From assembly GCA_010405405.1 (NCBI GenBank), contig MU004230.1, positions 1,708,627-1,772,626 of the forward strand: 64,000 bases of DNA. The letters are read 5' to 3'. The notes under the pieces were generated by a model. The model made no database searches, had not been told where the DNA came from, and saw only the letters and a program-made list of their open reading frames with translations. The position numbers and the translations under genes were made by a program. The stretch is from Microthyrium microscopicum (lineage: Eukaryota). How positions within the stretch are numbered: the stretch's first letter is position 1; each line of letters starts with the position of its first letter. Shown one piece after another: positions 9,056 through 53,900 of this stretch.

Positions 9056-9305
9056 AATATCGATCTAGGTGAGTGTATGCCTGGAAGGCGAGGTTGTAGG
9101 GGTTTTGTATAGATTGTGAGAATCTGACCGGTCGTAAATCAGGTATCTGTATGCAGGAGAGTAGGGAAGGAAGGTGGGTGTGGTGGGGTAGATGAGGTTA
9201 AGCAACAGGCGTTTGCTGTAGGATTATCGTAACTTTGCCTGTGACAACAGTATAGGAACACTCTAGGAATAGATGGAGAATATCAGAGAAGAATCAGATC
9301 AGGAT

Positions 9306-9340
9306 GGGAAGGGAAGGGAAGGGAAGGGAAGGGAAGGGAA
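9306..9340. repeat. (GGGAA)7 microsatellite in the cmkA core promoter
   Basis: Seven perfect GGGAA units; minus-strand TATAAA at 9352-9357 directly upstream. Confidence 0.95.
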
Positions 9341-15757: not shown

Positions 15758-16582
15758 ATGTGGACTACTACTCAAGTCCTCATAGCTTCCATCACCTTCA
15801 TTGGCCTCTCGGAACAACAAGGTCTACGACCACCGTGGGCTCAGTCACAAAAACCACCAGCTTGGGCTCAATCAAACGCACCGCCGGCCTGGGCTCAATC
15901 ACAAGCAAACCAACCACCATCTTGGGTATCAACACAAAGACCGCCCACATGGACGCAGACCCAAGCGCCAGCAGCCTGGCCAACCACGACACCACTCGCT
16001 GCAACATGGCAGCCGCGCACAACACCGGGCTTCGTATCAAGCTCATCTGCATGGCCACCGCGCTATCAATCCACTCAATCCGTCCTTCCGCCCCGCTCAA
16101 GTGCCCTCCCACCACCGCGACCTCTCGTTCCCAGCGCGCCGCGTCCAGCTTCAACATACTCACCCCGTCCAGCCGCTCCCGCTGCAACAGCAGCGCCTCG
16201 TCCAGCTGGTGAGACACCCGGCTGGGGAACGAACCTGCAAAACGGCCTCGGAAACCTGCTAGGAGCCCAAAGACCGCTCTCGATCCGCATGTGTCCCAAG
16301 GAAGTGCGCTGCACAGGCCTGTCGACGACTTGTGTGCCGCATCCATACCGAACTGATCGATTTATGTGCGTCAAGGTGGATGATGAGTGTGGAACGATTA
16401 TGAATCCGAAATGTCCAAGTGGGCAGACGTGTTTGGCGGATCCGAGAGATACTGATAGCTGGTAAGTTCATTTTCCACTCAAGTATTTAGGGCGATGCTA
16501 ATTGTTGTGCAGTAAGAATGGATGGTGTACTAGTTCGGCCGCGACTGGTGGTGGAATCTGCGTTACGCCGCCTAAGGATTGA
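15758..16582 (+). CDS. Secreted Pro/Trp-repeat protein with Cys-rich C-terminal domain; intron 16462-16512
   Basis: Hydrophobic N-terminus MWTTTQVLIASITFIGLS; PPxW repeats; spliced C-terminus CGTIMNPKCPSGQTCLADPRDTDSCKNGWC...GGGICV. Confidence 0.7.
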
Positions 16583-25199: not shown

Positions 25200-26245
25200 A
25201 GAGGTGGTCGGCTGTCTCCCATCGAACGCGTTGGCTAATAGCGTCTACTGAGCGTGTCGATGATCCTACCGCGTGGATGAAGATTCTTCTTCGGAATTGA
25301 TCTCCTGCGCGGTGGTTGTATCTCCTGCAAAGTAGTCGCTTGCCGCCATCGCATCGCATGGGAGCAGTCATGGTAATGAAGCATTGGATTGGGCACTGTT
25401 TTTGGGCATAGCGAAGGCGTTTTTGGCTTGGGTATCTCGCGAAAGGCGAGTTTTCTTGTATAAACTTTCTTTTTGTAACGAATTAATGACCAAATATTCA
25501 TCAAAACCGTCTATTTCTCTAGTCCTCGATCAGTGAATCCAACAACTGACCAACTCCCATCGAGTTCTACGGCCACCACCGCACTATATAAGAACAGCAT
25601 GCGATAGTTACCAGCACTTTCAATGGGAATTCAGCGGATCAAGGATTCAATTGCGATAGAGATTAAGATTGTCCCTAGATGACGGATACTTAAACTCCCA
25701 GCGCATTTGATGGCAGATCGGGCCATTAAGTGGTCTGTTGTGGATGTTGGTGACATCTCATTTGAATACAGTAGACCATCTAATAGCTGGCTTGTGCACT
25801 AGTTGAACATCTCACTAACTGCCTCTGTCCTATCTAGCACCGTCTCCTTACTTCCATATTGACTCTAAAAGTGGTTAGCACGGCATCATCGTAGCATGTG
25901 CAAAACCTTAAACACATCCACCGACTACAATGGCTGGCATCATTCCTGATCAGAACAAGACAAGCACTGCTTCAAGGTGTTTGGAGGAATGAACACTGTT
26001 CACACTGTCGCTGTGGAGGCAGCTTGAGATGTAAAGCACGGCAAAGGGCAGTCATCGCGGTAGTAAAGCACAGCAACATGCAATGTGTAGTATGGCAGGT
26101 TGTACAGTATATAACAGTGACTGAAGTACATAACAACCAGCAAGCATGTAGCAGTGACCAGAGATACGCTAGTAGCCTTGATAACAGACGAATCAATTCA
26201 CCAGTTCCATTCTCCCCTCTACCATCGAAACACAATAAGGGGTGT

Positions 26246-27523
26246 TTAACTTACATCAATACATTCCCATCTCACCGTCGCCCTCCGCACAATCGTCGGC
26301 CTGACCCTCTTCACACTATCCTCCCGTTTCGGCACAAACAGTCCCACGAATCCATCAAGCACCGTCTGTCCAAAACTGCGTGTTCGTACGGAAACTTCGG
26401 AGGCGGCGATGCTGGCTCGTCGCTTTACGAGCTGGAAGGACGGTTTACGCGTGGGGAAGGACGGTTTGCGAGTGGCGGGTGGAAGAAATGGTGAGGGGAG
26501 GGATGATGTTGGTGACGGGATCAGGTTTCGGCGGCGGTATGGGGTCGGGTCGGATGTGGTGCGTTGTAGGAGACGTTGGCGTTGTATTAGCGGTGGTTGT
26601 TGGGGCTTGGAGATTTGGGGAAGAGGTATGGTGGATGGAGAGACGGCGGAGTCTGTTGTGTTCACGTAGGCTGTGCTGGTATCTTGAGTCGATTCGTGAT
26701 TGTTGGCAATGGCGCTGTTGTCGATGGCTGGTTGTTCCTTGACGTTGGAAAGGTTATCAACGACGAGATCGGGATTCCTGGTTTGAAAAGGACTGGCGAG
26801 ATCTAGATTGTCGTGGCAGCTGGATCTGCGCAACTGATTGACTGTAACGGTAGGGTGTTTGATCTCAACGTCGTCTGGTTCATGATCGGTTTCTTGACGC
26901 AGTATGTCCTCATCTTCCCTCGCCTCACAATCCTCGCTTTCCCGTAGCTCTCTACCTTCGCCGTGAAGTACCACTTGCCTACTATGAGGCACCGGACACA
27001 GTCCACACTGAAACGCAACATCCTCCATCTCCTCCTCTCGTATCCTTTCCTCACCCTCATAGTCCTCATCACCATCTTCCTCCTCCCACCGCTTCAGTGC
27101 CTGCCATCTAGCCATCGTCAACGTCTCCGCCCTCGGAGTACTCGCTGAACTCAACAACATCCTCATCTTATCCTCCGGTACGATTTCCCCAGGCGCCGGC
27201 TCCCTAATCTCCTCGATCACCGGCTCTCTAGGTCTGAACGGCATATATCCAAGCGAGTAGCTGCGGCCATGCCAATAGCTCTTGTTCGACGGTCTTCGAG
27301 ACTTGACTTTCTCCTTCTCCACGTAGAGACCTGTAAACATGCCCGGCGGCTCATGAATCCTTCTCGTTCCGAAATCCCGGGTCGTAGTAGTGGTATTAGT
27401 TCTCGACATGCCCAGCAGCCCCACAAGGCCAGTGTCCAGCTTATTCAAGCCATCAGCGTCATACCGGTGAGTAACCACAGTAGCCATCATGACTTCAATC
27501 CAGGCAAGGCAAGAAAATCCCAC
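26246..27523 (-). CDS. Hypothetical low-complexity protein (start uncertain, possibly ~27490)
   Basis: 425-aa open frame with acidic and Ser/Arg/Pro-rich segments; no recognised domain. Confidence 0.5.
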   Translation of the reverse strand: MGFSCLAWIEVMMATVVTHRYDADGLNKLDTGLVGLLGMSRTNTTTTTRDFGTRRIHEPPGMFTGLYVEKEKVKSRRPSNKSYWHGRSYSLGYMPFRPREPVIEEIREPAPGEIVPEDKMRMLLSSASTPRAETLTMARWQALKRWEEEDGDEDYEGEERIREEEMEDVAFQCGLCPVPHSRQVVLHGEGRELRESEDCEAREDEDILRQETDHEPDDVEIKHPTVTVNQLRRSSCHDNLDLASPFQTRNPDLVVDNLSNVKEQPAIDNSAIANNHESTQDTSTAYVNTTDSAVSPSTIPLPQISKPQQPPLIQRQRLLQRTTSDPTPYRRRNLIPSPTSSLPSPFLPPATRKPSFPTRKPSFQLVKRRASIAASEVSVRTRSFGQTVLDGFVGLFVPKREDSVKRVRPTIVRRATVRWECIDVS

Positions 27524-36387: not shown

Positions 36388-39300
36388 TCACCATTCGTCT
36401 TTTTTGAACTCGAATTTGAACTGGCCATCCCAAGGCACCTCATGCATTTCAAGGAGGATGTTTTTCAGCCGCTGAATGTGTTGTACACTTCCCCATGAAA
36501 GCTGACCAGGCAGACCAGCCAAAGCACCAGTAGTGATATTCTCGAGCGGGGGGTAATGCTGTCTGGCATACCAGTACTCTCGTCTTGTGTTGTGTCCGAT
36601 ACCTTGTGCTGTTGCTGGATCCAACTCTTCGTCAATATGCTTCTCTTCGTATCGCTGACGATGCGTTGTATCCGTGGGCAATTGGTCGTATTCATCATCA
36701 CTATCTCCGAGCCCACAATCAGCGGCAAAATCTTTGGGTGGAAAGTTTTCTTGCCAAAAGTATTGATTCAGACATCTAGATTGTCAGTATAAGTTCATCA
36801 TGGGGGGCTAGTGTTAGCCAAAGCAGTATTTGAGCAGTCAATGCTCTGCTGAAAGGCCGTTCCATGGCGGTTTGCCAGGTAAACCTTTCAACAGAGCATC
36901 AAGCAGTGAAATACACAGGTTGGCCTTACACAGGGCAATACATACCGGTCTCTGTATCTATGCGGGTTTGGCGGAGATCCTAGTGGGGTGTTTGATGGCG
37001 AACCTGAATCATCCGGGTCAAAGCCAGCATAGCGCCTACGTTTCTTTGTCGCGGGGCTTGCATGGCAGGATCCTTCGTCTGATACTTCACTTGATTCCTC
37101 GCTCAATGACCGGGTAAAGCAGTCAGTTCCAAAGCAAACAGCACGCATCTGATGATATCTTGAGTCGTATGGAGCATACGTCGTGTCGAAATGGTTCACT
37201 AGAGGATGAACAATCTCCAAGCGACCCAGCGATCTGCCAGGCTGCACAAGCAGAACCCACAATAGATAAACCCATTCAGCTAGGGAGGTCGTCATGCAAT
37301 GTTTGAGCGTCAAACGTCTCAGAGTCATGGGGAGCCAGGAGACCAGTGGTGGACCCATAAACGGCAGCACTGCCCCTGGTAGGGGTATTGAAGCACGAAT
37401 TTGGGGTAGAGTCCACTGTGAGCCATTAAGCATACTCCCGAAAGAAATATTCTCTAGATGTATGGTATGCAGGTGCTGGAACTGTTGCCAATGTAGCATA
37501 TGGTTGAGGCCATGACCAGTTACTCCAGTACCGCACCACGAAGGCTTGATTAGGCTGAAATTTGGTAAACATAGTTCCAAGTGTCGCAAATTTCTTAGTG
37601 AATTGAATCGTTCCGCAAAGTCTGTAGGACCTGTATCGCACACGGTATCTTCGTCAACATGTGCTCCTCTATCTTGTATACAGATGCTAAACTTTTCCAC
37701 GGTATTCCAGAATGAGACATTATTGTTCACAACTTCGGATTGGATAGTGTTTCCATGTGAGTCTACTCCTGCAGGACTGAGCGACGTATAATTGACATAT
37801 GGCAAAACCAGTCGAAACTCTGACATTGAGAATGGTCGTGGAACATAAGCAAAAACGTGATTTGGGTCTTGTGACAAGTCTTGGCCCATGAAGAGGGATG
37901 ATTCGACTAAGACTTTCCGAACCCAGACTTTCTTGAAGTCTGGATATATGGAGCCTGGAAGGCGATCGTCCTGCCGAAAAGGAGGCTTTCGTAAGAATGC
38001 ATTTATGGTTCTATGCAGCGTTGAATTATCGGAGTGGACTCTCAAATAGAAAGGCTGTTTTTTGGGCGATAAAAGGTCTTGATTTAGGGGTTCAAACTTG
38101 CCTTTCTTCAGTGCTGCGATCCCTCTTAGCCGAGTAGATTGAGACTGGGCTAGTCGTGTTTCTGTGCCAATGTTTACAAAGTCGTCTTCACTTTCCGAGT
38201 CAGATTCATGTTCCGCTTTGTCAGTTGCAAACTCCCGCGCCCCAATGGTATTTAATATAGGATAGAATCCCATCGTGCGACCCTACGGCACAGTTAGTCT
38301 AGAGTCCTCATATCCCATCGATTCCGATGTATTCATTGAGACATGATAAGGATCTCACTTGACAAAGGAGGGTCTTTAACCAACTACGAAGCATCGACTA
38401 AAGCCGTGATGCTGTTTGAGATGAAAGAAGGCAATATCGCAAGAAATGCACTTACCCATCGTCTATGCAGCCTTCTGGCTCTTTTGGATGGCTTTGTTGA
38501 CTCAATTTCTTCGTTGATGTATTCGCGTCCTGTCCTGTCATAATGTGTGATTATGATAGTGTCTAGTTTGAACCCATTTTTCCGTCTCCGCGCAATTCTC
38601 CTCGCACTTTTTATCGCAATTTTTAGCGCCTTGTCTTCTGACTCATTGTCTTTTGGCTTATCGTCTTTTGGCTTGTTTTCATCTGATTCATCCTCATCTG
38701 ATCCATCCCCGTCTGAACCACGCCAGTTTGAGTCCGCTATTGTTAAGGCTTCGTGCAGGCCGTCAGTAATTATCTGTGATTCATTAGTCTCACTTCACTC
38801 TGTGTTTTGATTGATGGATATCTCATCGGTGAATGAATTGTGCTGAGACGCCATTTCAGAGCACCTCAGCATAAGCATTGACACGTTTTTGGTGAACAAA
38901 TAGACCCGGAATTCACTTCATCATGTAAAAACTTACACCGTCCTCACGAAGCTCAGATTGATTCGCCAGAGAGAGTCGTTGATATCTTTGGAGAACCGCT
39001 CGAAGTCTAGGGTTTCGAACGTGGATAATATCGCGATTGGGTTCCACGCTGTTAAGATTTTGCCAGTAAAAGCCATTGAGATAGTCTGTCGAAATATCAA
39101 GCTCTCTTACCAACCTTCGGGCTGGCCTTTCGCATCTAACCTCCGACCCTTCTGAATGAAGCAATTTGCCCAGTGCATGGATATTATTTCTCTCTGCGTG
39201 GCGTCAGAGTTAGACACGCTCAATTTTAGGGAAGTGTTACATACCTAGCATTATCTTGACGCGCTTGAGAATTTCTCTCCTGGTGATTTTCTGCGCTTGT

Positions 39301-40396: not shown

Positions 40397-42285
40397 ATGG
40401 CTCTTATCCAAACGAGTTTGATATGGGTGACATACGCCGTAGCAATTGCTATTCTCCTAATAATTGCCACCACCTTCGTCTTCATCTACCAAGATCCCCG
40501 CGAACGAGCTGCCTCTGTAACAACTGTCTGTATATTCACAACGAGCGCCCTTCTAGCAACCGTGCTGTTGATGCCCGTTGATATCGCACTCGTATCAGCA
40601 ACAACTTCCTCAAGAGATGGTAGAAAGAAAGACTGGGCTACACCCGATGCCGTAGAAAGCATAAGGTATACCCTCGAAATCGTATACTACACTCTATACT
40701 CTCTGGACGCGGTGCTGTGCCTCCTTGTCATTCCCTTCACATACTTCTACTTCGAGGAAGGTGGTCCAGATAGCGATGAAGATTCGCCAAGCCTAGGTTC
40801 CAGACTCTGGGGTGCTTTCAAGTATACCATTGGGTTCATTCTATTCGTCGTCATCCTGTTCCTGGTTGGCTTTTTCGTACCAGCTGCCAAAGGAGCCAAG
40901 GATGGAAAGCATCTGGACTTGGACTACTTCAAAAATCTCCTATCAGAAAATCGTACGTTCAAGCTTATCCCTTGCATTGTCAAGACTAACGAATATTAGA
41001 TGGCGAACGCGCTCTCACTTTCGCTCTTGGCTTACTCATCACTCTTGGAACTTTGATATATGTCCTATACACCGCCGCTGGTCTAGCTCTTCTACCCGTT
41101 GCTATGATCAAATCTGCTCCTTCCATCTCAGCCCCATCTCTTGCAGAGAATACCGCTTCACAACTCGAACAAAACCGAGAGCGACAGCATCAACTCGAAT
41201 CAAGAAATGAAGGCCGCGAAGATGGATTGAACTCCAGAGATCAGCGAGAATTGGAGGCTCTCATTCGTGAAGAACGAACTCTTGTTCGACGAGAACGCCT
41301 TGCTGCAGAAGCAACAGGCGAAGGCCGCAGCTGGGTCGTCCGAACCTGGCACAAGGCTGAAGCCGTTTTCAGGCCTATCAAGCTTCTTGGAGGTTTACTC
41401 CTCATGGTCATTGCACTCTTGATCTGGACATCGATGCTCATTACTGGCATTGATAAGGCCAAGAACTCAGTCTGCAAAGCTGGCTGTGGCTATATCCTAG
41501 GACACATCAACATTTTTCAACCCGTCAACTGGATTTTCGTTGTTTCATCAAAGGTCTTCCCAATCGACTATATAGTCTTCCTCTTCCTTGTACTATTTCT
41601 CTTCGCGTCATCGGTTGTTGGCATCGGCGTCGTTGGCATCCGTTTCCTCTGGATCGTCATCTTCCGCATCCGCAAGGGCCATACAAGCCCACAGGCACTT
41701 CTCATGGCAACTGTGATGCTCACCTTGATCACACTGGCTATCAACTATTCTGTCGCCATGATGATCGCCCCTCAGTATGCCTCGTTCGGAACCCAAACCT
41801 ACTGTGATCTGCCAGCCCGCCATCCAGGCGAGCAACCTGATTGCTCTAACCACCGCAGCTCCATCAAAGCATGCACCGAGCTTGCAGACAACCCAGTCGC
41901 AGGCCTCGTCTGCACGCCAAGTGTTGTGTCTACCTTCATTAACCGAGCAATGCTCAACTTCTCGTTCTTCGGTGTCGTTGACTTTTGGGCTCAATTTGCG
42001 TTCCTTGGTATGTCTCCTTACTCTCTTGAACTCTTGACATTCTAACGAATCGCTTCAGGTGTCTACTTGATTGTCTTCTTGACGACTCTGTTCCGCACTC
42101 CAAAGCTAGATGTGGAAGGTCTGGATGCCGATCTCGAAGAAGAGGAAGAGGAAGGCTTGCTGAGCAGCACTGGTCGACGATTCAATGCCACATGGCAAGA
42201 CATTACCGGACGCTCGAAACAGCGCATGGCCCAGTATGGTGCCACTGATAGCCGAGAGCAGACTAATGGATCTGAGTCTCACTAA
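40397..42285 (+). CDS. LMBR1/LMBD1-like membrane protein (putative lysosomal cobalamin transporter family); introns 40953-40999, 42008-42058
   Basis: [41 protein letters not shown] motifs; multiple TM helices. Confidence 0.85.
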
Positions 42286-43893: not shown

Positions 43894-43928
43894 AGAAGTT
43901 TTTGGAAAGAAATAGAATGTGGCAGAAG
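43894..43928 (+). promoter_or_regulatory. Step-type heat-shock element upstream of HSP70
   Basis: GAA at 43895, 43905, 43915 and 43925 (exact 10-bp phasing), about 220-250 bp upstream of the ATG. Confidence 0.65.
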
Positions 43929-44144
43929 GTTGGAGGCCCAACAAGAATCTACCAAAGCTTGAATCCAAACCACTACAAAATCCTCTGCTCGCTCAACTTC
44001 GCACACTTCTTTCTTCTTCATCTCAGAAACTCTTCATCCTTCTCCATCTACAAGACTACTTGCTCGGGTCACTCCTAATCCCTTGCTATACTAAAGCCCA
44101 ATACCCAATACCATCACATTCCACTTCCTACACATCCGCACATC

Positions 44145-46591
44145 ATGGCACCAGCTGTCGGTATCGATCTAGGTACCACGTACTCTTGCGTGGGTATCTT
44201 CCGCGATGATCGCATCGAAATCATTGCCAATGACCAAGGAAACCGAACAACACCTTCCTTCGTCGCTTTCACAGACACTGAGCGTCTCATTGGTGATGCC
44301 GCCAAAAATCAAGTCGCCATGAACCCTCACAACACAGTCTTCGACGCCAAGCGATTAATCGGTCGCAAGTTCGCCGATTCTGAAGTTCAGGCCGATATGA
44401 AGCATTTTCCCTTCAAGGTCATTGACCAAGCCGGAAAGCCAGCCGTCCAGGTTGACTTCAAGGGCGAACTCAAGACTTTCACACCAGAAGAGATCTCATC
44501 CATGATCTTGACCAAGATGCGGGAAACTGCTGAAGCATACCTCGGAGGCACTGTCAACAACGCCGTCGTCACCGTCCCAGCCTACTTCAACGACTCTCAA
44601 CGTCAGGCTACCAAGGATGCCGGTCTCATTGCTGGTCTCAACGTTCTCCGAATCATCAACGAGCCCACCGCTGCCGCCATTGCCTACGGTCTCGACAAGA
44701 AGGCCACTGGTGAGCGCAACGTGCTCATCTTCGATCTTGGTGGTGGAACCTTCGATGTCTCCCTCTTGACCATTGAGGAGGGTATTTTCGAAGTCAAGTC
44801 CACTGCTGGAGACACACATTTGGGTGGTGAGGACTTTGACAACCGTCTAGTCAACCACTTCGTCAACGAATTCAAGCGTAAGGTACGTTCAAATCCCCTC
44901 CAAGTTTTCCCTCAAGTTTTCCTTGCAAGTTTTTGGAACCAATAAGTGGCCTCCCATCGACTCCGCTGGGTACCATCGCCTTCTTTCACGAGAGGGTGGT
45001 TTCTTTCCCATCGTATTCGCGGAGAAATGACACTTGTTTTTCCAACCCAGTGGCTGGACGCGAGAAGTGGCATTCTTCCATCGACTCCGCTGGGCACCAT
45101 CGACTCCGCTGGGCCCCATCGCCTTTTTTCACGAGAAGGTGCTTTCGTTCCCATCGTAATCGAGGATAATTTTACTTGTTTTTTCCGCCCCAGTGGCTGG
45201 ACGCAACAAGTGACATATTCCCATCGACTTCGCTGGCTGCCATCGCCTCCTTTGCTGAGAAGGTGCTTTGGTTCCCATCGTAGTCGCTGGGAAAACGCCA
45301 CTTTTTTTGTCGATTGGTTTTTGCATTTTTTTCGCAATTTTTTTTGAAGAATATACACTAAATCTCTCTGAAGCATAAAAAAGACTTAACCAGCAACGCC
45401 CGCGCTCTTCGTCGTCTTCGAACCGCTTGCGAACGTGCCAAGCGCACCCTTTCCTCGTCCGCCCAAACCTCCATCGAGATCGATTCATTGTATGAGGGTA
45501 TTGACTTCTACACATCAATCACTCGTGCCCGCTTCGAGGAGCTCTGCCAGGATCTCTTCCGCTCTACCATGGAGCCAGTCGAGCGTGTTCTCCGTGACGC
45601 CAAGATCGACAAATCCTCTGTTCACGAAATCGTCCTTGTTGGTGGTTCCACCCGTATTCCCAAGATTCAGAAGCTAGTTAGCGACTTCTTCAACGGAAAA
45701 GAGCCCAACCGCTCAATCAACCCCGACGAGGCCGTTGCCTACGGTGCCGCCGTCCAGGCCGCCATTCTTTCTGGCGACACATCATCCAAGTCCACCAACG
45801 AGATCCTTCTTCTCGATGTCGCTCCTCTATCTCTCGGTATTGAGACCGCTGGTGGTGTCATGACTGCTCTCATCAAGCGTAACACCACTATCCCAACCAA
45901 GAAGTCCGAGACATTCTCGACCTTCTCCGATAACCAACCTGGTGTGCTTATCCAGGTCTACGAGGGAGAGCGTGCTCGCACCAAGGACAACAACCTTCTC
46001 GGAAAGTTCGAACTCACTGGTATTCCACCAGCTCCCCGTGGTGTTCCTCAAATTGAGGTCACCTTCGATCTTGATGCCAATGGTATCATGAACGTCTCTG
46101 CCGTTGAGAAGGGTACTGGAAAGTCCAACAAGATTGTCATCACCAACGATAAGGGCCGTCTGTCCAAGGAAGAGATTGAGCGCATGTTGTCAGAAGCCGA
46201 GAAGTACAAGGCTGAGGATGAAGCCGAAGCTTCCCGTATCGGTGCCAAGAACGCTCTCGAATCCTACGCTTACTCTCTCCGCAACACCATGAGCGATCCC
46301 AAGGTTGAGGAGAAGCTTGACGCTGGTGACAAGGAGAAGCTCAAGGCCGAGATCGACAAGACCGTGACCTGGCTCGACGACAGCCAACAGGCCACCAAGG
46401 AGGAGTATGAGAGCCAGCAAAAGGAGCTCGAGAGTGTCGCCAACCCCATCATGATGAAGTTCTATGGTGCTGGCGGCGAAGGAGGTATGCCCGGTGGCAT
46501 GCCAGGTGGTGGCTTCCCAGGCGGTGCTCCAGGTGGTGCTCCTCCTCATGCTGGTGGTGACGATGGTCCTACCGTCGAGGAGGTTGACTAA
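44145..46591 (+). CDS. hsp70: Cytosolic Hsp70 (SSA type); single intron 44883-45373
   Basis: [22 protein letters not shown]-terminal GPTVEEVD; splicing AAG|GT...AAG|CAT restores [29 protein letters not shown]. Confidence 0.98.
44944..45303 (+). repeat. Three tandem structured units (starts 44944, 45065, 45208) within the HSP70 intron
   Basis: Each unit reads AAGTG..CCATCGACTyCGCTGG..CCATCGCCT-hairpin-GGTG..TTCCCATCGTA.TCG..yACTT; units 1 and 2 are followed by CCCAGTGGCTGGACGC. Confidence 0.9.
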
Positions 46592-47469
46592 ATGCCTCGC
46601 TGCACTCTCGCTGGGTCGTCATGATACCACGAGTTCTTTCTTTTTGCTTTCTTGACTCCCCTGTTCTTCTTGGGTCTAGAAACTTTCCCACCGGTATGGC
46701 GTTCAGGCGCGTCATTTGAATTCTTAGATGAACCGAATAGGTTTACGGCCTTGCATGCATTATGATTTTCTTGTATGAAAACATGACCAAAAAACGGGTG
46801 ATGCGCAGTTGATAGATAGTCTGGTTTAGACCGGAATAATTAACTTTATGTTCAAAAAACTCATTGTGCCTTTCCATTCATCGTGACAATGTGCCTTGTG
46901 ACTTGCAATCTATGACATTGAAGACACATCTCTGCAATTGTCCTTTGATCAAATCCATTGGTGTAGATTCTCCCACCAGCATCCGTGCTGCTCGCCGCCG
47001 TCGCTGTTATCAGGCATTGGTCAATTTAGTTGCTCAATTGTTATGGACCTCAAAATTATGTTATGCGGAGGGCTGATATGGTGTTCAGATGAGCCAAGTT
47101 TATTAAAGACTTCATATTCTGCGGGACCTTGCTCAAGCCGCTCATCGGATGACCGCTCATAAATGAAATTAACAGCAAGTCAACCAGAGACAAATATCGC
47201 CTGGAATCTCCTCATCAGACTATTTTCTGCGATTTTACTCTACCACTGATGCTTTGTGTCTTTCTGTACTTCCTAAGTAATCTACCGCGGAAGGAGATTT
47301 GCCAATCCCGTCTTTTCGTTCCATATCTTTTACTCCAACATGAACTCCATATCAGTATCAAATCTCCAAAATCTACGGAAATCCCATTATGAACATTGAT
47401 GTTGTTGAGGATTGCAAATCCATCTTCATTATGATTGGTTGGAAGCTCTGGACCATCTGACCAATCAAT

Positions 47470-47488: not shown

Positions 47489-47784
47489 CAAGTCAAACTG
47501 TCAAGGATCAGGTGGCAGGTGCGCTCAAGCTGGATTGCTCTTGCCCATCGCTACCAAACTACCAGCAACTCTCCCACACCCAACATCTCTAACCTACAAC
47601 TCTCAATCCTTCAAATACAGAGTTCCCAGTCTTATCCACACCAAGCCAGATCTTCTGGTCCTGTGTGATCTGCTTATTCTTGACTCTTCTTATTCCAATT
47701 ACTATTCATGATTCTCCCACCTCCGTCGCGTCCCAACCAATCTCGAAATAACCACACCACCTAGCGCGCTGATCACCCTTCACC

Positions 47785-50418
47785 ATGTATCTCCCGCGCT
47801 CCCTAATATCGCACCTGTACAATGATCTCGTCCGGTCTCGTACATCTCTCTCGCCTTCGGTGCTGGTTCTCGTTTCACTCGAGCCTGACGCGTTATGTGC
47901 ATGCCGAATCCTCACGTCGCTTTTCAAGAATGACTATGTTCAACACAACATAAAACCTATTGCAGGTTATGCTGACCTCGCTCGGGTTGGGGAGGAGGTG
48001 ATCCGCCCAATGCGAACCACGGAAGGTGGCAGTGGTGGTGTTGTCGTCTGTCTCGGCGTGGGCGGTCTCGTAGATCTCGAGACTATCCTTGGCCTTGAAG
48101 TTGATGATGATGGCAATGGTGGTATGGGTGGTTTAGATGTCTGGGTGTTCGATGCACGACGTCCATGGAATTTAGCCAACGTGTTTGGCATGCAAAGTCG
48201 CGTCGAGCAGGTCAACGGCGAAGCAGTCTCGAGGATTGCAGGCGTAGAACACGGCAAGATTCTACAAACATTTAAACCTGGCGAAGGCGGCATTATAGTC
48301 TTTGACGATGGCGATATTGAGGAGGAGCTCAGAGCTGAAAAGGAAGCCTACTGTGCACTAGCTGAAATGCCAGATGTTGACGAAGAAGATGATGGAGACG
48401 ATTCAGACGACTCTGATGCAGGATCAGACCACGACGCAGACGACATGATACCTGAGTCAGGTCAGCCACAGATTGCGGATAGCGATGAAAGCGACAAGAG
48501 CTCGATAGGGGAGAAAAGAAAGCGAAGATCATCTCCCCAATTTAGTGACGACGACCACGAAGACAGTGATCCCGAAGAAGGAACGCCGAATAAAAGAAGA
48601 CGAAGCAACTCCTCATCACCGTTACCCTCATCTTCCCGACCGGCTGCCAGATCGCTAATGATACTATCCAAGCCAAATGACCAGCAAGTTGGTCAGCACG
48701 CCGAAGCATCAACGCATGGACAGCCTTCAGCCAAGAAATTGCGCAAACAGCTACTTAAGTTAAAGAGAAAACATGACTCTGTACTTCGAAAATACTACAA
48801 CCTAGGCGCTTCGTATTCAGAACCTATCTCATCACTCATGTGGAATCTAGCCTCTGAACTTGGTCGAGATAGCAATGACTTGCTATGGCTAGCCATTGTT
48901 GGGGTGAGCAGCGGGCAAATATCTGGCAGAACCGCCAGCGGCATTGGACTTTCACCAATTTCTACGTCTGGAACCTTATCGAGTTGGACCAAGGATCGTG
49001 GGGAGCGCATTCGCGCAATCTTTCGAGATGAAGTTCGTCGTCTCAACCCTACAGATCTTCGTGATCTAGCTCGCGAAGTAGGTGGTGATACTGGCATCAT
49101 ACCAACAAGAGCATACAGTCCCACCGATAATTCCATCAGATTGACACCCGAGCCCAGATTCCTTCTTGTCAGGCATTGGTCATTATATGACAGCATGCTC
49201 CACTCGCCATACCTTTCTGCCAAACTACACATCTGGAGTGACGCTGGCAAACGCAAAATGCACAAACTACTTGCAAAAATGGGGGTTAGCATTCAACAAA
49301 GTAAACAGAACTACCAACACATGGACATGGAAATTAAGCGGGGTCTTGGTGAGAAGCTTGTTCGATTCGCTCCTCAGTATGGCCTTGAAGGTCTCGTACC
49401 GCCTGAGACTCGGCTCAACAGCAAAGAAGGCTGGGGTTTCGTTCGATGTTGGGGCTGGAAAGCTTGCCTCAGCGCAATAGACTCTGGAATCATACTCGGA
49501 GCCATTCTCGAAGTTGGTGACATGGATGTTAAAACTGCAGCAGAGCAAGCTCGCAATGCTGCTCTACAATCTGCTGCTCACTCTGGCACCAGCACGCCTT
49601 CCAACAACCAAGATGCTCCTTTGCAAGGGGCCAAAGCTCCTACCCCTGCACAAGCACAGCTTTCTCGCGAAGAGTCTTTGCTCCGGCGCTTCTGGTCGGC
49701 CTACGATGCACTCGGGGACGTTATGCAGCTCACCTCAGCTATACCCACAGCACAACATTTGCATCGTGCTATCCTTCGGACCGGCACATCACTCATTGAG
49801 AAGCGACAAATTCGCCATCTTCGCGCTTTCCGCATGGCAGTCGTGAAGGAAGGACCAGATGTCGCATTGTTCACACATCCAGGTGCACTAGTCAAGTTGG
49901 CCTTATGGCTAGCCGAAGCAATCAGCGAAATGGACAGCCTCAAAGGCGCACGAACTGGCGAGCTCGTCATGGCCGGTCTCGACGAAGCGCGTGGCGTCTA
50001 TGTTGTCGTTGGTCTCGGCGGTGGCAGCGCAGTAGCCAAAATGAAGGAGCGCGAAGCTAGAGTCGCCGAGCGTAAGAAAGAACGGGAGCGGACAAAGGCA
50101 GAGCGCAAGGCCGCCAAGGACAAGAAGCGTCAACAGCGTAAAGATCGGCTGGCGGCATTGGGCGAGAGCGATGCTGAGGACGAAGAAGATGACGAGACGG
50201 AAAGCGAAGCGAGTGAGAGCGAGGAGGAGAGTGAAGATGAAGAGGAAGCTCCTCGAGGCAAGGGTCTCAATCGATTTGGAAATGCGTTCCAGGAGGTTAT
50301 TGAGGAGACTGGCGTGCGTGTCAAGGTAGATAGCTTTGAGCACTGTGTGGTGGAGATTCGCAAGGAGGATCTTTCTGGGTTTTTAGAAAGTCTGTGCATG
50401 AAGGCGGTTGTGGGATAG
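47785..50418 (+). CDS. CDC45: DNA replication initiation factor Cdc45
   Basis: EPDALCACRIL, DARRPWNLANVF, FLLVRHWSLYDSM, LLAKMGVS, NRFGNAF motifs; single exon. Confidence 0.95.
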   Translation: MYLPRSLISHLYNDLVRSRTSLSPSVLVLVSLEPDALCACRILTSLFKNDYVQHNIKPIAGYADLARVGEEVIRPMRTTEGGSGGVVVCLGVGGLVDLETILGLEVDDDGNGGMGGLDVWVFDARRPWNLANVFGMQSRVEQVNGEAVSRIAGVEHGKILQTFKPGEGGIIVFDDGDIEEELRAEKEAYCALAEMPDVDEEDDGDDSDDSDAGSDHDADDMIPESGQPQIADSDESDKSSIGEKRKRRSSPQFSDDDHEDSDPEEGTPNKRRRSNSSSPLPSSSRPAARSLMILSKPNDQQVGQHAEASTHGQPSAKKLRKQLLKLKRKHDSVLRKYYNLGASYSEPISSLMWNLASELGRDSNDLLWLAIVGVSSGQISGRTASGIGLSPISTSGTLSSWTKDRGERIRAIFRDEVRRLNPTDLRDLAREVGGDTGIIPTRAYSPTDNSIRLTPEPRFLLVRHWSLYDSMLHSPYLSAKLHIWSDAGKRKMHKLLAKMGVSIQQSKQNYQHMDMEIKRGLGEKLVRFAPQYGLEGLVPPETRLNSKEGWGFVRCWGWKACLSAIDSGIILGAILEVGDMDVKTAAEQARNAALQSAAHSGTSTPSNNQDAPLQGAKAPTPAQAQLSREESLLRRFWSAYDALGDVMQLTSAIPTAQHLHRAILRTGTSLIEKRQIRHLRAFRMAVVKEGPDVALFTHPGALVKLALWLAEAISEMDSLKGARTGELVMAGLDEARGVYVVVGLGGGSAVAKMKEREARVAERKKERERTKAERKAAKDKKRQQRKDRLAALGESDAEDEEDDETESEASESEEESEDEEEAPRGKGLNRFGNAFQEVIEETGVRVKVDSFEHCVVEIRKEDLSGFLESLCMKAVVG

Positions 50419-50977: not shown

Positions 50978-53900
50978 ATGTACGGGCCAACTCGCAATGT
51001 CGATATGACAAAGTATGTCAACCTATCGCTTCGAGCGCCGGCTTGTGTGTATTGTACAATGCTAATGAATAGCTAGACAAGAAGGCGAATTGGCCATCAA
51101 CATCAAGAAGGCGACCAATACAGGTTTGTGCCTTCAGCCTAGTAAACTTTCTATCAAGCTAACTCGAGAATCACAGATGAGACAGCGCCAAAACGTATAT
51201 CCTATCACTCTTCCATTATAATCATCAAGCTCACCTGAAGCTAGGCAAGCATGTACGAGCTTGTATCGTCTATACTTGGGATCACAAATCCTCGCTGTCT
51301 TTCTGGGCAGGAATGAAAGTGTACGCTCAACATCACAACTCTTATTGTGAAACACATGCTAAGACATCCCCAATAGACAGCCAATCCTCGCCGACGAAGT
51401 CCAAACCTTTAAAGCCCTCATTACCGTACACAAAGTCCTACAAGAAGGTCACCCAGTGGCCTTGAAAGAAGCCCAAGCCAATGTTGGATGGCTTGAAAGC
51501 TTGCGACGAGGAGCTGGACACGGCGAAGGTGTGCGCGGATATGGAAAGCTTATTGAAGAATACGTTTTCTTCTTGCGCGCAAAGCTAGCATTTCATCGAC
51601 AGCATCAAGAGTTCAATGGTACAACTCTTCGAACCACTCTCACAATTACAGCTAACTCCTTCTAGGAACGTTTGAATACGAAGAGTATATCAGCTTGAAG
51701 AGCATCAATGACCCAAATGAGGGGTATGTAAATTCCTAGTCTTCTGGATTGATTAGCTGACCAATGATAGATATGAAACTATTACCGACCTCATGACCCT
51801 TCAAGATCAAATCGACAATTTCCAGAAGCTTATCTTCGCGCACATTCCTCATACTGCTCACAGTGAATGCCGTATATCGGCGTTGGTTCCATTGGTCCAG
51901 GAAAGCTATGGAATCTACAAATTCATTACCAGCATGCTACGAGCTATGCACACAACTCTAGGTGACGATGATGCATTGGCACCACTTCGGGAACGATATA
52001 ACATGCAACATTACCGATTGGTCAAATTTTACTACGAGTGTGGTCAGTTGCGATATCTCACTAGTTTAATCACGGTTCCAAGGCTGCCGCAGGATCCTCC
52101 AGGTCTGCTAGCTGAGGATGACGAGAGACCCGGTCTGCCCAATCGGCCTGCCAAAGAAATTGAAAAGCCACCAACTCCCGACAAGGTCATAGACCGCGCA
52201 CCACCGATTGATCCAGAACCAATAAACGAGTTCTGGAAGAACCAAGATGCATTTGCAGATGAGCAGCGAAGACTTCAAGAACAGTTCGAAGCTGAGCGTC
52301 GAGCTCAAGAAGAACGTGAGAGACAAGCGCAATTGGACTTTGAGAATCAACAACGAGCTCAAGCAGAACAACAGAGGCTTGAGCAAGAACGTCTTCAGCA
52401 ACAGCTTCAGAATCAACAAACGTACGGTCGCATGGCAGATCTGGAGCGCGAGAATCTTGCCGCCAGAGCCCGGTATGAGCAAGATCAATTGATGCTTCAA
52501 CAGTATGACCGAAAACTCCAAGCTCTAGAAGCAGAGCTCGCCCAATTGCAAGCGAATTATCAACAGCAGAACAATTCCAAGGATGAGCAGATTCGAGCCC
52601 TTCAAGAATCGGTCAACACATGGCGCAACAAGTATGAATCTTTGGCAAAATTATATTCTCAACTACGGACTGAGCATCTCGAACTGCTTCAAAAGTTCAA
52701 GGGTGTTCAAGCCAAGGCTGCTTCGGCCCAGGAAGCGATTGACCAACGCGAGAAATTGCAGCGCGAGCTGAAGCAAAAGAATTTGGATCTTGCTAACATG
52801 CTCCGAGAACGCGATCGTGCAATGCTGGACAAGGACCGAGTAACTGGCGGTCACAAGGACGAGCTCGACAAACTCAACCGAGAACTTAGATTCGCTAGAG
52901 ACAAGGCCGAGGATGCCGAGCGTGCGAAAGGAGCTGAATTGGGAGTCGTCATCAACAGATACCAGAGAGAGATCTCAGATCTTGAGGAGCTTCTTCGTCA
53001 ACGCGAAAAGGCGCTGGACGGTATGCGCGATAGCGGTGAGCTTGATGAGCTTCGCCGTCAATTGCGCGAGAAGGATGATCAAATTGAGATCGTCCAAGCT
53101 GGCATGGATCAAACCATTCTCGAGCTTAATGCGCTTCGACAACTTCACGAGGCCAACGATCAAGTCATCGATGGCCAGCTCGACTCTGTTGTCTTGGACA
53201 GCATTCGCAAGATCAACGATATCATTGATTCAGTCCTTCAAAGCGGTGTTCAACGAGTGGACGACTCCATTTACGAGCTTGATTCTTCAATGCAGGCTGG
53301 TAACCAGAATGCTTCTGGTGCCTATGTTCTCTCTCAGATCGAGAAGGCAGCACAAAATGCCATGGAGTTCTCTACTGCATTCCGGGAGTTCATCGCGGAT
53401 GGACATAATCACAATCACGCCGAAATCATTCGTACAGTCAACCTATTTTCTGGCTCCATCTCTGACGTCTTGAGCAACACCAAGGGATTGCAGCGCTTTG
53501 CTTCTGATGACCGAAAGGGTGATCAGCTTATCAACGCCGCACGAAAGTCTGCTCAATCAACTATCAAGTTCTTCCGTGACTTGCAATCTTTCCGTCTAAC
53601 AGGCCTCGACGACCATCAAAAGCAAGATGTTATCATTCATAATAATGGGGACGTCCAATTAAACCTCCAGAACCTCTCAAAGCTGGCGGACGCTTTCGCT
53701 CCAAAGAGCAAGATTACTAACCAATCTGGTGACCTTGGAGACTTGGTTGATCAGGAAATGACCAATGCCGCGAAGGCTATCGACGCGGCTGCTGCTCGCC
53801 TCCAAGCTCTCATGAACAAGCCAAGAGACGCATATTCCACCTATGAGCTCAAGATTCACGAGTAAGTACTTTTTGATCATACCTCTGTAGCCTGACTAAC

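Follow-up and report, generated by a model that had tools for sequence, protein, structure and literature searches.

The 64,000-nucleotide stretch of Microthyrium microscopicum DNA analysed here (contig MU004230.1, positions 1,708,627 to 1,772,626 of the forward strand; hereafter the window) encodes an SSA-type cytosolic Hsp70 at 44145-46591 on the plus strand, in a gene with a single intron. Nearly the whole of this intron (44896-45343) is a nested tandem repeat, in which a large, partly palindromic unit recurs three times. Based on all analyses, it was considered most probable, at roughly 0.58, that an ordinary Hsp70 intron was enlarged by a minisatellite that is lineage-specific and partly palindromic, and that this intron is spliced normally and is probably tolerated through its self-folding. 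Repeats inside fungal introns are already known as a kind, and this instance is new. Nothing found in this analysis shows the repeats to be a dedicated regulatory RNA.

Structure of the intronic repeat

The intron was resolved by Tandem Repeats Finder (TRF) into a period of 143 nt (2.1 copies, 82% matches, 44954-45250), a 19-nt period (2.3 copies, 96% matches, 45078-45121), a 13-nt period (3 copies, 88% matches, 44896-44933) and an 11-nt period (2.4 copies, 86% matches, 45318-45343). A repeat search returned a 76-nt core in 3 copies, at 44952, 45095 and 45219, the second and third of which were 84% and 82% identical to the first. The array thus consists of head-to-tail copies of a unit in the range of ~10-150 nt, as is expected of an intronic minisatellite. 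The large units (Table 1) were 79-88% alike over 72 shared columns, with transitions and transversions mixed. Since the 19-nt duplication within unit 2 is nearly identical, the duplication process was taken to be still ongoing.

Every unit is built of three sub-repeats led by CCATCG, a word that occurs in the intron 10 times on the plus strand and 0 times on the minus strand. Elements A and C of the unit are near-copies of one another and quasi-palindromic, and the inverted symmetry of the unit follows from this. Inverted arms of 35 and 37 nt with 76-80% complementarity were found, 45065-45099 with 45269-45303 and 45200-45236 with 45275-45311. The word of hairpin A has 4 copies at 0-1 mismatch, and the 7 matches observed were attained by 0 of 100 shuffles. 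The linker CCCAGTGGCTGGACGC has 2 exact copies in the whole window, both of them intronic.

An earlier note, made from the letters alone, had described a single 491-nt intron with three homologous units, an extra 19-nt duplication of the first hairpin of unit 2, hairpins A and B, and a linker identical between units. The exon matches, the spliced contigs, TRF and the repeat search bore out this description.

The Hsp70 gene and its splicing

The two exons meet at K248/H249 of the matched protein P0003 with no gap or overlap, hence there is one intron only. The best named Hsp70 matches were 91-95% identical and came from Dothideomycetes and Eurotiomycetes, with nothing closer among the matches listed.

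The intron borders were recorded in RNA-derived contigs. In X5, two contigs match up to 44882 and then run directly into the first 9 letters of exon 2; in two others, whose match stops at 45371, the adjoining letters are the last 17 of exon 1. In X7, a run from another study, the joint between 44879 and 45371 is present in record 24, with 0 other letters. X5 differs from the window at 0 positions, and its unspliced contig, spanning 44853-45393, likewise has 0 other letters. The word depth in X5 was 356 for the intron-bearing contig vs 18,510 and 23,793 for the exon contigs on either side. Since the word depth of contigs is a rough figure and a poor measure of abundance, it was concluded only that the spliced and the unspliced forms both exist and that the spliced form is dominant. 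The host gene is very highly expressed. No cover inside the intron was found in runs X6 and X7. The X6 contigs span the intron position with ~20 differing letters; they are spliced or intron-less forms of other organisms and are uninformative on the introns of those organisms.

Run X7 is labelled as another organism. Its records 21 and 24 are identical to the Hsp70 of the window, including the spliced joint, at a depth of 4-5, and stand beside the Hsp70 of X7's own organism at a depth in the tens of thousands. This suggests a mixed sample or carry-over.

The 3' splice site of the intron is AAG; the usual 3' splice site is YAG. The triplet AAG is duplicated at the two borders, at the end of exon 1 (44880-44882) and at the end of the intron (45371-45373). 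The likely branch-point word (Table 1) was chosen after the fungal consensus CTRAY. Retention of the intron would lead to a stop at 44943-44945 and a product of 266 amino acids, as the earlier note had stated and as read-through of the sequence confirmed. A census of introns in the window by a crude motif scan, which is too ambiguous for the purpose, gave 2 clean candidates of 49 and 47 nt. An antisense open reading frame (ORF) of 154 amino acids at 44912-45376 (-) was rejected as a gene: it matched no Pfam family, had 0 homologues among 4 candidates, and was equalled in length by 119 of 2000 dinucleotide shuffles.

Folding of the intron

It had been argued in the earlier note that the divergence between the units preserves their structure and therefore speaks against a neutral minisatellite. 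The hairpins proposed there were assessed as 17 pairs across the 3 units, with 500 column shuffles. Two-sided changes were found in 0 of the 17 pairs, and the observed scores were matched by 500 of the 500 shuffles. Hairpin A was invariant across the units. In hairpin B (10-bp form), 6 pairs were invariant, 2 had one-sided changes kept by G-U pairing and 2 were broken in one or two units; because wobble preserves pairing for about half of the transitions in a stem, the balance of 2 kept and 2 lost pairs is that expected by chance.

The whole intron folded at -151.1 kcal/mol in the sense direction (z-score -3.85, 100 shuffles) and at -158.7 kcal/mol in the antisense direction (z -3.67). The two strands fold equally well, and the argument from structure-preserving divergence was not upheld. 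Units 1 and 2 folded alone were not unusual (z -1.8 and -0.2). Unit 3 reached -38.8 kcal/mol (z -4.8) in sense, a stability suited to the hairpin precursor of a microRNA-like locus, and -44.6 kcal/mol (z -6.4) in antisense. Since unit 3 is more stable on the antisense strand, its fold was regarded as a signature of DNA palindromy and not of a sense-strand RNA. Hairpin B yielded -12.6, -8.4 and -7.3 kcal/mol in sense vs -3.3, -3.2 and -6.8 kcal/mol in antisense for units 1-3. Hence, the claim of structured RNA-like modules stood in part: the intron folds beyond its shuffles and hairpin B is sense-biased, but units 1 and 2 are ordinary.

The accessibility of the splice signals between 15 and 45 °C was predicted on the intron flanked by 40 nt of each exon. 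Throughout this range, the 5' splice site was unpaired with a probability of 0.42-0.46 (shuffles at 37 °C, 0.39 ± 0.08), and the probability for the branch point rose gradually from 0.39 to 0.77 (shuffles at 37 °C, 0.68 ± 0.18). No structure over a splice signal that opens at a physiological temperature, as in an intronic RNA thermosensor, was found in silico. The temperature-sensing control of splicing suggested earlier thus gained no support, the predicted accessibility being flat at the 5' splice site and shuffle-like at the branch point.

A long-range helix (Table 1) was taken from the minimum-energy fold with the splice signals forced open. When larger internal loops were allowed, the composite helix had 33 bp, a cofold energy of -42.3 kcal/mol and linkers of 49 + 37 nt, and the mean pair probability was 0.65 over 29 of its pairs. 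A stem as stable in such a position was obtained in 0 of 200 shuffles, and any qualifying stem in 15 of 200. The helix and its distance were predicted to hold from 20 to 50 °C. The graph distance was 35 for the native sequence vs a shuffle mean of 25.4, and 55 of 60 shuffles were equally short or shorter. As a prediction the helix is real and unusually strong. Because it follows automatically from tandem palindromic units, we can only infer a benefit to splicing.

Known families and copies elsewhere

In agreement with the earlier note, which had recognised no described family, nothing better than E 9.9 was found in Rfam for the region and nothing reached the gathering score in the window. ARAGORN returned 0 tRNAs that could point to a transfer RNA (tRNA) or short interspersed element (SINE) origin. 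A small nucleolar RNA (snoRNA) was defined by C (RUGAUGA) and D (CUGA) boxes, or by H (ANANNA) and ACA boxes, in each unit, together with a match to a family model. No C/D or H/ACA boxes are kept in every unit: the intron contains no TGATGA, CTGA is confined to unit 3, and an ACA lies near the end of one unit only. No Rfam snoRNA match was obtained for the units even at E up to 10. The U14 box C/D snoRNAs lie in vertebrate hsc70 introns, which resemble the present case as Hsp70-family introns with repeated RNA-sized units; the units described here differ from them by having neither C or D boxes nor the snoRNA match.

The earlier note had proposed a search with an Infernal covariance model. Within the window, the unit covariance model found nothing beyond the three units and their image on the antisense strand, and a unit profile (nhmmer) found the array only. 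A weak profile match at 25528-25639 (E 0.007 and 0.09 on the two strands) was inspected and was not a unit copy. Dispersal was assessed in the contigs of X1, which appears to be the source of this DNA (136,357 contigs, 44.3 Mb), at ≥80% likeness against 44000-46650. On this 2.65-kb stretch, 5 of the 136,357 contigs were placed: the locus itself, three Hsp70 paralogues (exon parts) and one contig with ~32 nt in the intron. No second copy of the unit was found in the 44.3 Mb at ≥80% likeness; therefore, the unit is not a recent dispersed repeat, and the many dispersed copies by which the earlier note would have known a simple mobile repeat were not seen. By this search, and by the profile and model within the window, the array occupies a single locus, as a minisatellite does, and near-identical copies in unrelated genes, as for introner-like elements, were not found. 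A scan with a 25-letter unit word gave 0 matches in genome contigs and 0 in viral contigs. Among the literature matches listed, no description of such an array was found, which is not proof of absence.

Other tandem repeats of the window are (GGAAG) x7.8 at 9302-9340, a 27-nt repeat x2.8 at 15829-15904 and a 21-nt repeat x2.4 at 26424-26475; none of the three resembles the intron unit. The 16-mer CCATCG-N4-CGNTGG was found outside the intron at 0-1 mismatch at 25219-25234, 25698-25713 (-), 25918-25933 (-), 38315-38330 and 41621-41636; three of these sites share one intergenic stretch, and the expectation for the whole window is ~0.9 matches. They may represent a short dispersed motif or chance. 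The exact word YCCCATCG has 12 sites in the 64 kb, all on the plus strand and 6 of them outside the intron, with ~3.1 expected on both strands together.

The intron position in related fungi

The relatives were judged from the 120 best Hsp70 proteins or gene models and not from intron DNA. The junction FKRK-HKK-DL was unbroken in 69 of the 120, and extra residues stood at the junction in 21; in 19 of those 21 there were 14-25 residues (42-75 nt). The extra segment follows HKK or NKK in 13/19, HK in 4/19 and FKRK in 2/19. Such segments often start with V-R or V-x and terminate in words readable as a branch point and CAG, and they are probably unspliced short introns. The intron of the window, inserted after FKRK, is 9 nt upstream of the usual site in the relatives. 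Together with AAG at both borders, this offset could reflect sliding of the intron or an insertion that duplicated a short target.

Long open stretches 5' of exon 2 that are unlike exon 1 were recorded in fungal ORF fragments, with 137 codons in P0054 and 125 in P0004. The upstream parts of P0040 and P0041, which belong to one clade, were degenerately back-translated and aligned to the hairpin B region at 44968-45012, with scores of 25.8 and 24.0 vs shuffle maxima of 23.4 and 22.0 (25 shuffles each). When the upstream parts of P0038 (same clade), P0054, P0004 and P0090 were aligned to the intron, they did not score above shuffles. A protein search with residues 1-40 of P0040 matched itself only. 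The tripeptide YHQ (TAYCAYCAR), present in 5 of 31 upstream parts, was rejected as a conserved word, 4 of the 5 coming from one clade with exon 2 98-100% alike; in the control, 60 of 500 shuffles had some tripeptide common to at least 5 sequences, and YHQ remains a weak lead. A metagenome scan with a degenerate junction word (the end of exon 1 followed by GTNNGT) gave 88 loci, 0 of which encode Hsp70 by tblastn.

Origin of the array and alternative explanations

We proposed that a partly palindromic unit of ~124-143 nt, composed of CCATCG-led sub-repeats, would have been duplicated head to tail about three times, presumably by replication slippage or unequal exchange, and that smaller duplications may still be arising. 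An ordinary short Hsp70 intron would thus have swollen about eight-fold. Transcribed along with its very highly expressed host gene, the array would be excised by ordinary splicing. Its potential to fold as RNA would arise incidentally from the inverted symmetry within the DNA repeat and not from selection for a multi-module RNA. Pairing between the first arm of unit 1 and the last arm of unit 3 would be a likely side effect, and this self-folding probably accounts for the tolerance of a long intron in a short-intron fungus. The slippage origin, the neutrality of the array and the aid of the helix to splicing are the steps that we infer. The array resembles fungal intronic minisatellites in having head-to-tail units of tens to ~150 nt in one intron, which are diverged, carry new small duplications and are non-coding; it differs in that its unit is partly palindromic and a composite of three CCATCG-led sub-repeats. 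The MSB1 minisatellite reportedly lies in an intron of a Botrytis ATPase gene. Copy-number variation among isolates is the usual hallmark of minisatellites. In the available part of PMC3609843, repetitive elements are inserted in regular introns of three species.

Several observations weigh against this reading. The clear sense bias of hairpin B, the sole sense-specific signal among the predicted folds, is not what pure DNA palindromy predicts, and the P0040/P0041 alignments give a weak hint that the hairpin B region may be conserved in that clade. The open stretches of P0054 and P0004 imply that long introns near the site occur elsewhere. With differences of 12-21% between its units, the array is not of very recent origin and has perhaps been retained for some time. 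The definition of zipper stems in yeast, in the available text of PMC12350175, allows a total linker length of 42-85 nt and no more than 5 bulged nt. Under this strict definition the linker total here is 86 nt, and only an outer 6-bp stem of -4.5 kcal/mol is left, which 27 of 200 shuffles equalled. Finally, the RNA evidence consists of contigs of one data set whose condition is unrecorded, and regulated retention or a stable intronic RNA may be compatible with it.

A foldback or introner-like mobile element, inserted or re-seeded in the intron and duplicated in tandem while its sister copies decayed beyond recognition, would explain the palindrome of unit 3 (~97-112 nt, inverted arms of 35-37 nt), the AAG at both borders and the position after FKRK, whereas the extra residues of 17/19 relatives sit 6-9 nt downstream. 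Introner-like elements were found in Dothideomycetes, a class included in the best named Hsp70 matches and perhaps related to that of the host, and in the available part of PMC3609843 they share with this intron (491 nt, z -3.85) a length above that of regular introns, a stable predicted structure of low folding energy and canonical splice signals. As described there, however, unrelated genes carry tens to hundreds of near-identical copies of them, and here the 44.3 Mb of source contigs (≥80% likeness), the profile and the covariance model (64 kb window) gave no second copy. The internally symmetrical (stw)introns of the Hypoxylaceae, as far as the accessible text of PMC8469720 goes, likewise have long inverted repeats and a potentially near double-stranded RNA, but their repeats are 45-55 nt long, terminal and with many sisters; here the longest pairs are 35 and 37 nt, lie inside the array and not at the intron ends, and sisters were not seen. 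A resemblance to the P0040 clade's intron, which is possible, would also favour an inherited intron with slid borders, and the mobile origin was regarded as unlikely. That the long-range helix is a selected zipper was thought more doubtful again. Its strength, with 0 of 200 shuffles matching the 33-bp helix of -42.3 kcal/mol and 15 of 200 giving any qualifying stem, and its predicted distance, unchanged from 20 to 50 °C, would speak for selection, and such stems are widespread and sometimes required in S. cerevisiae (PMC12350175, available text). The helix here is known as a prediction, has more than 5 unpaired nt and a linker of 86 nt, just beyond the published maximum of 85 nt, and comes as an automatic outcome of the symmetry of tandem palindromic units. 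Moreover, its graph distance is no better than that of shuffles, and a short intron, as in the relatives, would need no zipper. Some variants in the same text lowered retention, so not every zipper promotes splicing.

It was judged improbable that the units are functional sense-strand RNA modules, either small-RNA precursors with a microRNA-like hairpin in unit 3 or protein-binding sites tuning Hsp70 splicing under stress. Such modules would fit the z of -4.8 for the unit 3 hairpin, the sense bias of hairpin B in 3/3 units, the very high expression of the host gene and the weak hint of a hairpin-B-like stretch common to one related clade. Splicing of the hsp70-1 intron of Blastocladiella emersonii is partly blocked at 42 °C, leaving the intron partly unspliced (PMC2773782, available text). 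The dependence of Hsp70 output on splicing under severe stress is known in other fungi and needs no repeat modules. The modules would have to lack covariation, an Rfam family and conserved C/D or H/ACA boxes; accessibility stays flat at the 5' splice site, the 37 °C values equal those of shuffles, and most relatives have space for 42-75 nt only. A slimmer chance was given to hairpin B (the CCAUCGCC...GGUGG stem) as an old sense-strand element of the Hsp70 intron common to at least one Pezizomycotina clade, which here would form a three-module platform binding a factor or feeding a small-RNA pathway and would tie Hsp70 output to splicing capacity under stress; if true, this would be a new kind of intron-borne heat-shock gene control. 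The slimmest chance was left to a DNA-level intronic enhancer, in which a dimeric DNA-binding protein would recognise each quasi-palindromic CCATCG-N4-CGNTGG and the duplications would have increased the number of its sites. The intron has 5 such 16-mers, the window 5 more places at 0-1 mismatch where ~0.9 were expected, a total attained by 0 of 100 shuffles, and YCCCATCG words lie on the plus strand in 12 of 12 cases. Duplication alone, however, accounts for the intronic copies, and the excess outside is small (5 places), scattered and, in all sites but one, mismatched. To our knowledge, no factor binds CCATCG-N4-CGNTGG.

Other features of the locus

The coordinates of the features are collected in Table 1. 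The word at 43895-43907, upstream of the gene, may be an HSF site. Downstream on the plus strand lie a CDC45 gene at 47773-50418, with one open frame of 881 codons that groups with Ascomycota, the organism being an ascomycete, and a gene for an ANTH-domain protein at 51757-53865.

Table 1. Features of the Hsp70 gene and its intron in the window.
Feature	Positions	Strand	Description and basis
Heat-shock-element-like word GAAnnTTTnnGAA	43895..43907	+	GAAGTTTTTGGAA; one departure from GAAnnTTCnnGAA; regular-expression scan; ~240 nt 5' of the Hsp70 start codon
Hsp70 exon 1	44145..44882	+	246 amino acids, C-terminal FKRK; P0003 residues 5-248 at 94% identity; RNA contigs stop at 44882
Single intron	44883..45373	+	491 nt, GTACGT...AAG; joints of the spliced form in X5 and X7, one unspliced X5 contig
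13-nt tandem repeat, 3 copies	44896..44933	+	TRF and repeat search; final copy similar to the large unit's 3' end
Long-range helix, 5' arm	44938..44975	+	Predicted; pairs with 45269-45318
Unit 1	44941..45064	+	124 nt; repeat search, alignment, profile and covariance model
Hairpin B, copy 1	44975..45000	+	Copies 2 and 3 at 45118-45143 and 45242-45267; folding, covariation test
Unit 2	45065..45207	+	143 nt, with the 19-nt hairpin A duplication at 45078-45121; TRF, alignment, covariance model
Unit 3	45208..45312	+	Near-perfect hairpin of ~97 nt (45208-45304), without linker; folding, inverted repeats
Long-range helix, 3' arm	45269..45318	+	Predicted; pairs with 44938-44975
T-rich 11-nt tandem repeat, 2.4 copies	45318..45343	+	TRF
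Likely branch-point word CACTAAAT	45356..45363	+	~12 nt 5' of the 3' splice site; fungal CTRAY consensus
Hsp70 exon 2	45374..46591	+	405 amino acids and stop, HKKDL...EEVD; P0003 residues 249-655 at 92% identity

Implications

If the minisatellite origin is true, the locus would be a clean natural case of a palindromic tandem repeat swelling the intron of an essential, very highly expressed gene about eight-fold, with the spliced form dominant by rough contig depth, and the length of the array would offer a convenient marker for isolates. The shift of the intron by 9 nt and the AAG at both of its borders may inform work on intron sliding and intron gain. Finally, the intron offers a test case of whether zipper-like long-range helices, so far a subject of budding-yeast work, let short-intron fungi tolerate long introns.

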